Part shown: positions 3,001-6,690 of the stretch, piece after piece | Layout: every line of letters starts with the position of its first letter | How positions within the stretch are numbered: the stretch's first letter is position 1 | IMG/VR virus record: IMGVR_UViG_2547132269_000001 | Location: 1 to 6,690 of that record | DNA length: 6,690 bases | Direction: 5' to 3' (one strand) | From: a virus | Lineage: Duplodnaviria; Heunggongvirae; Uroviricota; Caudoviricetes | Made by a program: the position numbers

Positions 3001-6000
3001 GTTTCTCAGGAGATCAGCACGGCAGACGAAGGGGATGGTGGTCAGGTTGTGGTGATTGGTCGCTGATGCAAAACATTTTATGTGAAACCGCCTGCGGGCG
3101 GTTTTGTCGTTTATGGAGCGTGACGAATGGGTAAAGGCAGCAGTAAGGGGCATACCCCGCGCGAAGCGAAGGACAACCTGAAGTCCACGCAGCTGCTGAG
3201 TGTGATCGATGCCATCAGCGAAGGGCCGATTGAAGGTCCGGTGGATGGATTAAAAAGCGTGCTGCTGAACAGTACGCCGGTGCTGGACAGTGAGGGGAAT
3301 ACCAATATCTCCGGTGTCACGGTGGTGTTCCGGGCCGGTGAGCAGGAGCAGACATCGCCGGAGGGATTTGAATCCTCCGGCTCCGAGACGGTGCTCGGTA
3401 CAGAAGTGAAATATGACACGCCGATCACCCGGACCATCACGTCGGCAAACATTGACCGTCTGCGTTTTACTTTCGGCGTGCAGGCACTGGTGGAAACCAC
3501 CTCAAAGGGGGACAGGAATCCATCGGAAGTCCGCCTGCTGGTTCAGATACAACGTAATGGTGGCTGGGTGACGGAAAAAGACATCACCATTAAGGGTAAA
3601 ACCACTTCACAGTATCTGGCCTCGGTGGTGGTGGATAACCTGCCGCCGCGCCCGTTCAGTATCCGGATGCGCAGGATGACGCCGGACAGCACCACAGACC
3701 AGCTGCAAAACAAAACGCTCTGGTCGTCATACACCGAAATTATCGATGTGAAACAGTGCTACCCGAACACGGCACTGGTCGGCGTGCAGGTGGACTCGGA
3801 GCAGTTCGGCAGCCAGCAGGTGAGCCGTAATTATCATCTGCGCGGGCGTATTCTGCAGGTGCCGTCGAATTATAACCCGCAGACGCGGCAATACAGCGGT
3901 ATCTGGGACGGAACGTTTAAACCGGCATACAGCAACAACATGGCCTGGTGTCTGTGGGATATGCTGACCCATCCGCGCTACGGCATGGGGAAACGTCTTG
4001 GTGCGGCGGATGTGGATAAATGGGCGCTGTATGTCATCGGCCAGTACTGCGACCAGTCAGTGCCGGACGGCTTTGGCGGCACGGAGCCGCGCATCACCTG
4101 TAATGCGTACCTGACCACACAGCGCAAGGCGTGGGATGTGCTCAGTGATTTCTGCTCGGCGATGCGCTGTATGCCGGTATGGAACGGGCAGGCGCTGACG
4201 TTCGTGCAGGACCGACCGTCGGATAAGGTGTGGACCTATAACCGCAGTAATGTGGTGATGCCGGATGATGGCGCGCCGTTCCGCTACAGTTTCAGCGCCC
4301 TGAAGGACCGCCATAATGCCGTTGAGGTGAACTGGATTGACCCGAACAACGGCTGGGAGACGGCGACAGAGCTTGTGGAGGATACGCAGGCCATTGCCCG
4401 TTACGGTCGTAACGTCACGAAGATGGATGCTTTTGGCTGTACCAGCCGGGGGCAGGCACACCGCGCCGGGCTGTGGCTGATTAAAACAGAACTGCTGGAA
4501 ACGCAGACCGTGGACTTCAGCGTGGGCGCAGAAGGGCTTCGCCATGTGCCGGGCGATGTCATTGAAATCTGTGATGATGACTATGCCGGTATCAGCATCG
4601 GCGGGCGCGTGCTGGCGGTAAACAGCCAGACCCGGACGCTGACACTCGACCGTGAAATCACGCTGCCATCCTCCAGTACCAAGCTGATAAGCCTGGTTGA
4701 CGGAAGTGGCAATCCGATCAGCGTGGAGGTTCAGTCCGTCACCGACGGCGTGAAGGTGAAAGTGAGCCGTGTTCCTGACGGTGTTGCTGAATACAGCGTG
4801 TGGGGGCTGAAGCTGCCGACGCTGCGCCAGCGCCTGTTCCGCTGCGTGAGTATCCGTGAGAACGACGACGGCACGTATGCCATCACCGCCGTGCAGCATG
4901 TACCGGAAAAAGAAGCCATCGTGGATAACGGGGCGCACTTTGACGGCGACCAGAGCGGCACGGTGAATGGTGTCACGCCGCCAGCAGTGCAGCACCTGAC
5001 TGCCGAAGTCACCGCAGACAGCGGGGAGTATCAGGTACTGGCCCGCAGGGATACGCCGAAGGTGGTGAAGGGCGTGAGTTTCATGCTTCGCCTGACCGTG
5101 GCAGCGGATGACGGCAGTGAGCGGCTGGTCAGCACAGCCCGGACGGCGGAAACCACATACCGCTTCACACAACTGGCGCTGGGGAACTACAGGCTGACAG
5201 TCCGGGCAGTAAATGCGTGGGGGCAGCAGGGCGATCCGGCATCGGTATCGTTCTGGATTGCCGCACCGGCAGCGCCGTCGCGGATTGAGCTGACGCCGGG
5301 CTATTTTCAGATAACCGCCACGCCGCATCTTGCGGTTTATGATCCGACGGTACAGTTTGAGTTCTGGTTCCCGGAAAAACGGATTGCTGATATCAGGCAG
5401 GTTGAAACCAGCGCGCGTTATCTTGGTACGGCGCTGTACTGGATAGCCGCCAGTATCAATATCAAACCGGGCCATGATTATTATTTTTACGTTCGCAGTG
5501 TGAACACCGTTGGCAAATCGGCATTCGTGGAGGCTGTTGGTCGGCCGAGTGATGATGCATCCGGCTATCTGGATTTTTTCAAAGGCGAGATAGGGAAAAC
5601 CCATCTGGCTCAGGAGCTGTGGACGCAGATTGATAACGGTCAGCTTGCGCCTGACCTGGCTGAAATCAGGACGTCCATTACGGATGTCAGCAATGAAATC
5701 ACGCAGACCGTCAATAAGAAACTGGAAGACCAGAGTGCGGCAATTCAGCAGATACAGAAGGTTCAGGTTGATACAAATAATAACCTGAACAGCATGTGGG
5801 CTGTGAAGCTGCAGCAGATGCAGGACGGACGCCTTTATATCGCGGGTATTGGTGCCGGTATTGAGAACACCCCTGACGGCATGCAGAGTCAGGTGCTGCT
5901 GGCGGCGGACAGGATTGCGATGGTTAATCCTGCGAATGGCAACACAAAACCGATGTTTGTTGGTCAGGGCGATCAGATATTCATGAACGACGTGTTCCTG

Positions 6001-6690
6001 AAACGCCTGACGGCCCCCACCATTACCAGCGGTGGAAATCCACCGGCATTTTCCCTGACACCGGACGGAAAGCTGACCGCTAAAAATGCGGATATCAGTG
6101 GCAGTGTGAATGCGAACGCCGGGACGCTCAACAATGTCACGGTAAATGAAAACTGTACGATTAAGGGCATGCTGGAGGCGACTCAGGTCAGAGGTGACTT
6201 CGTTAAAGCTGTATCCAAATCATTTCCGAAACAGGCTGGTACGTGGGGTAACACGGAAACACCAAACGGGACGGTTACAGTCACCATCAGCGATGATCAT
6301 AACTTTGACCGTCAGATTATTATTCCGCCCATTATCTTTAACGGAATAGCGTATAGCGATCCGGGAAGTGGTAATAACCCGGGAGGTACAAGATACACGG
6401 GTTATGGTTTTGAAGTTCGCAAAAACGGTGTATTAATCGCATCCAGAGAAACTAAAGGGGCCATTCCCGGTAGCTACAGTGCGGTTATTGATATGCCGAG
6501 TGGCAGGGGAAGCGTCACTCTGGAGTTTAAGGTTTTCCATAAAGGCAATCAGCGGGCAGGTAATATCACCGACTGTACGGTGATTGTGACCAAAAAAGCC
6601 GCTTCCGGCATCAGTATTCGTTGAAATTGTTATAACCCATATAAGGGCACCAGAAATGGTGCCTTTTTTATTGCAGAAAAGCGAGAGGTA

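Follow-up and report, generated by a model that had tools for sequence, protein, structure and literature searches.

A mosaic J gene combining a long helical shaft with a phage-434-class receptor-binding tip, probably directed at OmpC

The C-terminus of the tail tip protein J sets receptor specificity, and phage 434, which was isolated towards the end of the 1950s, has a host range that maps to J; when the 434 fibre gene is put in place of lambda J, binding switches to OmpC, the 434 receptor. The body and the specificity region of J have very different phylogenies, and frequent recombination between both has been documented. Natural J variants carry four putative loops rich in indels at positions 1012, 1048-49, 1077-78 and 1107, and a 2018 study described an indel plateau in the shaft region without assigning it a consequence. 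According to cryo-EM work on lambda, FNIII domains in the C-terminal part of J are followed by an alpha-helical shaft (aa 809-861, boundaries from PMC11101478), then by a prism of beta sheets, and finally by the receptor-binding domain, which is Ig-like and has four loops at its bottom. When lambda binds LamB, the opening of the tips is accompanied by a twist of the prism and a flip of the shaft, part of which turns into beta sheet; the FNIII domains are thereby released and the tube opens. For another class of J tip, that of A8 and phi330, binding to OmpC is known from a solved complex with EDL933 OmpC (9wcb) and from ompC knockout and complementation for phi330.

The window analysed here is a stretch of 6,690 nucleotides from a virus of the Caudoviricetes (positions 1 to 6,690 of IMG/VR record IMGVR_UViG_2547132269_000001), which opens with the 3' end of L (1-94) and continues with an insertion, K (split), I and J. 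The insertion is a 1.7-kb low-GC segment between L and K that holds two Arc-like genes and an Ant antirepressor; lom, the gene that follows J in phi458, cdtI and 434, lies beyond the end of the sequence here. The window corresponds to a complete draft contig, AEJU01000283.1 of assembly GCA_000208425.2, and a second assembly matches it with 100% identity over 6,660 nt. In both, a G-run at 2150-2152 lacks 1 nt, a deletion that splits K; the K of phi458 and that of phage 434 are intact and 247 aa long. The features discussed below are the following.

1761-2369: ORF, JAB part of K
2159-2497: ORF, NlpC/P60 part of K
3127..6624, plus strand: J tip attachment / central tail fibre protein, an intact ORF of 1165 aa
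3127..5550, plus strand: J body (hub and FNIII/Ig domains), aa 1-808, lambda-type, 97% aa identity to lambda
5551..5793, plus strand: alpha-helical shaft (AHS), long form, aa 809-889, 28 aa longer than the lambda AHS (lambda aa 809-861)
5794..5961, plus strand: upper central straight fibre (beta prism), aa 890-945, diverged from lambda and forming one module with the long AHS
5962..6126, plus strand: lower part of the central straight fibre, a block conserved with lambda (aa 946-1000; identity 95% in aa, 94% in nt)
6127..6624, plus strand: receptor-binding domain, a predicted Ig-like beta sandwich assigned to the phage-434 class, aa 1001-1165 and stop codon (Pfam Ig_GpJ_C, E = 1.4e-25)
6643..6673, plus strand: terminator-like hairpin and T-run (10-bp stem with 5 G-C pairs, then TTTTATT)

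J of the window is a member of the lambda gpJ family. Six Pfam domains that are specific to J or associated with it (FNIII-A_GpJ, Phage-tail_3, Ig_J, Ig_J_second, Phage_Tail_Tip and Ig_GpJ_C) occur in the expected order, each above its cut-off and with E from 1e-25 to 2e-42; Phage_Tail_Tip covers J aa 872-1000 and Ig_GpJ_C aa 1029-1164. The tail-tip cluster has the gene order L-K-I-J that characterises the family, and a protein database search returned thousands of J homologues annotated as host specificity protein J. Three other ORFs in this region, at 4057-5604 and 5973-6170 (both antisense) and at 6146-6349 (same strand, other frame), are regarded as by-products of the J frame. Phage 434 shares the 66 nt 3' of the J stop with 100% identity and has an annotated terminator at the corresponding position, and a promoter and terminator scan of 5400-6690 gave the hairpin after J as its only plausible signal, with match counts equal to the shuffle expectation; one scan match, at 5559-5574, was set aside as lying inside coding sequence. 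An Rfam scan of the whole window returned no match, and no Chi sites (GCTGGTGG) were found.

We compared J with lambda J (NC_001416) by protein and DNA alignment, and used an alignment of eight J sequences to place indels and modules. Identity to lambda is uneven along the protein, and the divergence described in the earlier note is real. The J body is 97% identical in amino acids to lambda, 434, phi458, cdtI and Perceval, and 75% identical to WGPS4; at the nucleotide level, identity to lambda is 95.3% over window positions 1780-5623 and 95-96% over the region coding for aa 1-807. The near-identity to lambda that the earlier note had proposed for about 930 residues thus exists but extends over about 807, and the position it gave for the start of the diverged region, 5570, agrees with a divergence motif at aa 813 (nt 5563). 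Its length of 1165 aa for J, against 1132 in lambda, is borne out by the ORF and by the alignment, which assigns the extra residues it had claimed to the shaft (28) and to the receptor-binding domain (a net 5).

In the eight-sequence alignment, the extra residues of the shaft lie opposite two gaps in lambda, one of 21 aa at position 835 and one of 7 aa at position 838. An AlphaFold2 monomer model of aa 801-1165 has helices at J 811-823, 826-836 and 841-891 (pLDDT 55-68); its mean pLDDT is 55.6, with values below 50 across aa ~879-1023 (the prism), and we use it for the helical shaft only. Heptad periodicity is not significant in the shaft or in the insert (p ~0.09-0.10 in a crude test), and the sole basis for reading the insert as four putative heptads is the two gap lengths, 21 and 7. 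The GC content of the AHS is 0.477. Over aa 808-945, identity is 52% to lambda, 53% to 434, 98% to WGPS4, 99% to cdtI and 100% to phi458, and when the DNA of the window is compared with that of WGPS4, mismatches are sparse only in ~5494-6009. The block in which J had been said to rejoin the lambda sequence is found as a run of 48 out of 48 identical residues ending in SGSVNAN, and nt 5950-6130 are 94% identical to lambda, compared with 48% and 51% in the flanks; Perceval is near-identical to the window from nt 6064 on. This conserved block, aa 946-1000, is the likely site at which homologous recombination joined the shaft module to the tip module.

The last 164-165 aa are 38.5% (tblastn) to 43% (alignment) identical to lambda, in agreement with the diverged final domain of the earlier note. 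Relative to lambda, the tip carries indels of +2, +6, +1, +2 and -6 (net +5) at lambda positions 1011/1012, 1051, 1078, 1099 and 1109-1114, which coincide with the four reported indel-rich loops. Between aa 1001-1165 and the J of phage 434, 157 of 165 residues are identical, with no indels and 92.5% nucleotide identity; the codon differences comprise 22 synonymous and 8 non-synonymous changes, and the substitutions in or next to the variable loops include Q1036K, A1037V, S1077D, D1078N, R1127G and R1143W (window residue first). The tip is 94% (93.9%) identical to that of lambda h434 (Lambda h434 imm21), again with no indels, 99% identical to those of Perceval and cdtI, and 100% identical to that of phi458. 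An AlphaFold2 model of the tip (pLDDT 80.3) is all-beta, and its best four Foldseek matches are the J receptor-binding domains 9wcb, 9wca, 8xck and 8xcj (TM 0.71-0.75, E ~1e-15), the next match after the J domains having E = 2.5e-4; the structural comparison with the lambda J receptor-binding domain that the earlier note had suggested thus yields a matching Ig-like fold. With its high identity, equal loop lengths and predicted Ig-like beta-sandwich fold, the tip is assigned on its sequence to the phage-434 (h434) host-range class. A lambda LamB-type tip would be recognised by close identity to lambda aa ~970-1132 together with the lambda loop lengths, and in place of these the window has the low identity given above and indels at or next to all four loops; nor is it an A8/phi330-type tip, given 45-50% identity and another indel pattern.

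Among the eight J genes compared, we find four combinations of shaft and tip. A short shaft is joined to a LamB-type tip in lambda and to a 434-type tip in 434 and Perceval; a long shaft is joined to a 434-type tip in the window, phi458 and cdtI, and, in a form 98% identical to that of the window, to an A8/phi330-type tip in WGPS4. The form of the shaft reassorts independently of the J body and of the tip. The DNA mismatch profiles place the junctions in conserved stretches, at ~5494-5590 and ~5950-6130, a location that fits homologous recombination and also agrees with the published difference in phylogeny between J body and specificity region. Shaft and tip are two independent modules that reassort across phages, and the single recombination breakpoint implied by the earlier note is replaced, from the identities and the mismatch profiles, by two modules with a conserved joint between them.

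We consider it probable that this J is a mosaic of known modules assembled by homologous recombination, with a 434-type tip that most likely docks on OmpC. The receptor of the tip would most likely be OmpC instead of LamB, and the earlier note's view that module exchange has probably changed the receptor, as something expected and not unprecedented, is supported by the 434-class tip, the published OmpC genetics and the documented recombination in J. By analogy with lambda, three C-terminal Ig-like domains would insert their bottom loops into the trimeric porin, the opening caused by this insertion would be passed up the beta prism, and the helical shaft would flip and partly refold, so that the FNIII domains are released and the tail tip opens; the modules themselves would have been joined by homologous recombination inside the conserved flanking stretches. 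The siphovirus phi458, whose shaft and tip are identical to those of the window, plaques on the K-12 strain MC1061. The literature searched yielded neither an adsorption nor a receptor experiment on this exact allele, and nothing on the receptors of phi458, cdtI, Ayreon, mEp332, the PhiR phages, Perceval or Tritos.

The last 495 nt of J (6130-6624) have a GC content of 0.469 and a GC3 of 0.467, whereas the J body has 0.584 and 0.70, and among 650 sliding 495-nt segments of the J body the lowest GC is 0.549 (mean 0.590; binomial z = -5.2), so that the AT-richer end of J that had been noted earlier is confirmed when computed. Such a shift might reflect the amino-acid content of a beta sandwich, or the way GC generally falls towards the end of lambda's left arm, and not the ancestry of a module. 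The GC content does start to fall at about nt 5300, inside lambda-identical sequence, and lambda shows the same fall, with a tip (GC 0.545, GC3 0.62) that is also below its body (GC 0.545 vs 0.584); the drop specific to the window allele is only that in the receptor-binding domain. However, the fall in GC3 from 0.70 to 0.467 locates the shift at synonymous sites, so amino-acid content is not the driver, and the effect is specific to one class: 434-type tips have a GC3 of 0.47-0.49 in all five carriers examined, compared with 0.56-0.69 in the other classes (lambda 0.62, WGPS4 0.685, phi330 0.56), all on bodies of ~0.70-0.73. We therefore think it unlikely that composition arose apart from module ancestry, and the low GC3 appears to be a property of the 434-type tip module that travels with the module.

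The sequence class of the tip need not fix its receptor, because loop substitutions may have retargeted it to another porin (OmpF, LamB or another outer-membrane protein) or to particular OmpC alleles. The tip differs from that of 434 at eight of 165 residues, which cluster near the indel-rich loops, lambda is known to gain the use of OmpF with four J mutations, of which those at 1012 and 1107 are always required, and natural 434-class tips in E. coli genomes are graded from 90 to 100% identity, a pattern that fits the tracking of polymorphic receptor loops. Yet there are no loop indels relative to 434, the ratio of 22 synonymous to 8 non-synonymous changes suggests purifying selection on the whole domain, and both 434 and phi458, the latter with an identical tip, can be plated on K-12, all of which makes retargeting quite improbable to us; the eight substitutions could tune the OmpC allele used or, less probably, change the receptor. 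We give more weight to the possibility, which we find plausible while leaning the other way, that the J allele is a relic in a prophage whose tail is defective through the K frameshift, the variant J being left without a current host-range role. The 1-nt deletion leaves JAB and NlpC/P60 in separate ORFs, K is intact in phi458 and 434, and the deletion recurs in the second assembly, so this prophage may be tail-defective and its copy of J may not currently be used. Against this, the ORFs of J, I and Ant are intact, both assemblies could be one strain or share a homopolymer sequencing error, and lambda is viable although its reference, too, shows a 1-nt gap, within the 5' part of the K frame. 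Even so, a relic would concern the use of the gene in this host and not the identity of its modules, as described by the mosaic reading that we prefer.

To see how common each module is, we counted matches in 5,426 complete E. coli genomes at a query coverage of at least 80%. The long shaft of the window type is found in 3,559 of the 5,426 and the short shaft of the lambda type in 2,627, and about 2,083 carry the 434-type tip. The lambda LamB-type tip is found in 96 genomes at this coverage and in 98 with any match; these genomes all match at 99% identity or more and, among the matches listed, are laboratory strains. With about 2,083 genomes for the 434-type tip against 98 for the lambda type, lambda is an unusual allele, and since the LamB-binding tip is outnumbered about twentyfold by the 434-class tip, lambda is a poor default for natural J. 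The best match of the whole window to the complete E. coli genomes is 94.5% over 96%; the exact mosaic of the Arc/Ant insertion with a lambda-like K-I-J is not in this set, although each module is.

The feature in J is already known, given the identical sequence in a characterised phage, the 434 tip class and the published mosaicism of J, and its importance is small beyond correct annotation, in which this J should be given the long shaft form and a tail tip of the 434 class that probably depends on OmpC. With the lambda structure solved, the dimorphism in shaft length can be located on it, within the signal-transducing shaft. The difference of 28 aa might be a functional polymorphism kept in nature and not neutral variation, an idea we put forward with considerable doubt; both forms are common, they reassort independently of body and tip, and they concern the element that flips on binding of lambda to its receptor. 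If the idea were true, the longer shaft could extend the reach by ~4 nm, for instance across O-antigen, or shift the threshold for triggering.

Among known systems the closest is phi458 (OP434518), which is 100% DNA-identical to the window over 5570-6690, with a J likewise of 1165 aa and with the long shaft and the 434-type tip; over the same interval cdtI is 98.7% and Ayreon 97.5% identical. Differences from phi458 are found in the J body (~3%), in the Arc/Ant insertion, which phi458 does not have between L and K, and in K, which is intact there. Phage 434 and lambda h434 (OL657226, OM418627), which are OmpC-dependent, share 157 of 165 tip residues and a low tip GC3 with the window, but 434 has a short lambda-type shaft and a J of 1137 aa, is 53% identical to the window over aa 808-945, and differs by eight tip substitutions. 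Lambda J (NP_040600; PDB 8IYK, 8XCK, 8XCJ), which is LamB-dependent, has in common with the window its architecture, gene order, 97% identity over aa 1-807, the identical 48-aa run in the lower prism and an Ig-like tip, whereas its shaft is 28 aa shorter and its tip, at 38.5-43% identity, carries indels at each of the four variable loops. The tip class of A8 gpJ, phi330 and WGPS4 (PDB 9WCA, 9WCB) is also a J domain that binds OmpC, and in WGPS4 it is carried on a long shaft 98% identical to that of the window; its tips nevertheless have 45-50% identity to the window tip and other loop indels, and they represent a separate class converging on the same porin.

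Of 5,426 complete E. coli genomes, only 98 carry the LamB-type receptor-binding domain of lambda; every match has an identity of at least 99%, and the carriers among the matches listed are all laboratory strains. The 434-type domain occurs in approximately 2,083 genomes of the same set. Within and directly after the J gene, two further features were recorded:

4057-5604, minus strand: antisense ORF inside J, 515 aa
6643-6673, directly 3' of the J stop codon: terminator-like hairpin (10-bp stem, T-run)

The antisense ORF is probably not a gene but a side effect of the high GC3 in the J body. 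Beyond J, the following 66 nt of phage 434 are 100% identical to those of the window, and a terminator is annotated in that phage at the equivalent spot. The window (ending at 6690) and the second assembly L009 (ending at 11534), both of which carry the exact J, stop approximately 70 nt or less past the gene, just short of the place that lom occupies in related phages. These contig breaks probably reflect assembly collapse at a repeat common to several prophages of the genome.

Upstream of J, gene K (window 1761-2497) is broken in two by the loss of 1 nt from a run of G at 2150-2152, where the window has GGG and both lambda and the plaque-forming phage phi458 have GGGG. The two domains of the protein thereby fall into separate reading frames:

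1761-2369: ORF with the JAB/MPN domain part of K
2159-2497: ORF with the NlpC/P60 domain part of K

In phi458 and phage 434, by contrast, K is unbroken. The same deletion is present in the second, 100% identical assembly (L009 7016-7032), and the split K is either a real pseudogene or a homopolymer sequencing error common to both assemblies. If the pseudogene is real, the prophage would be tail-defective. The lambda reference (NC_001416, locus 1134-1876) has a 1-nt gap of its own within the 5' portion of the reading frame of K, seen relative to the window and phi458 (alignment A3, column 156), and because of this gap the annotated lambda K starts at an internal ATG and has 199 aa, whereas K has 247 aa in 434 and phi458.

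L and K are separated by a 1.7-kb insertion of low GC (0.434) at window 95-1779, and at the right junction K has other sequence in place of its first ~8 codons. The insertion carries three reading frames:

111-500, minus strand: Arc-like ribbon-helix-helix gene
539-712: second, small Arc-like ORF
660-1706: P22-type Ant antirepressor

This Arc/Ant insertion is absent from lambda and phi458, but the Stx phages WGPS6, 2851 and phi330 carry it, with approximately 82-85% identity to that of the window.
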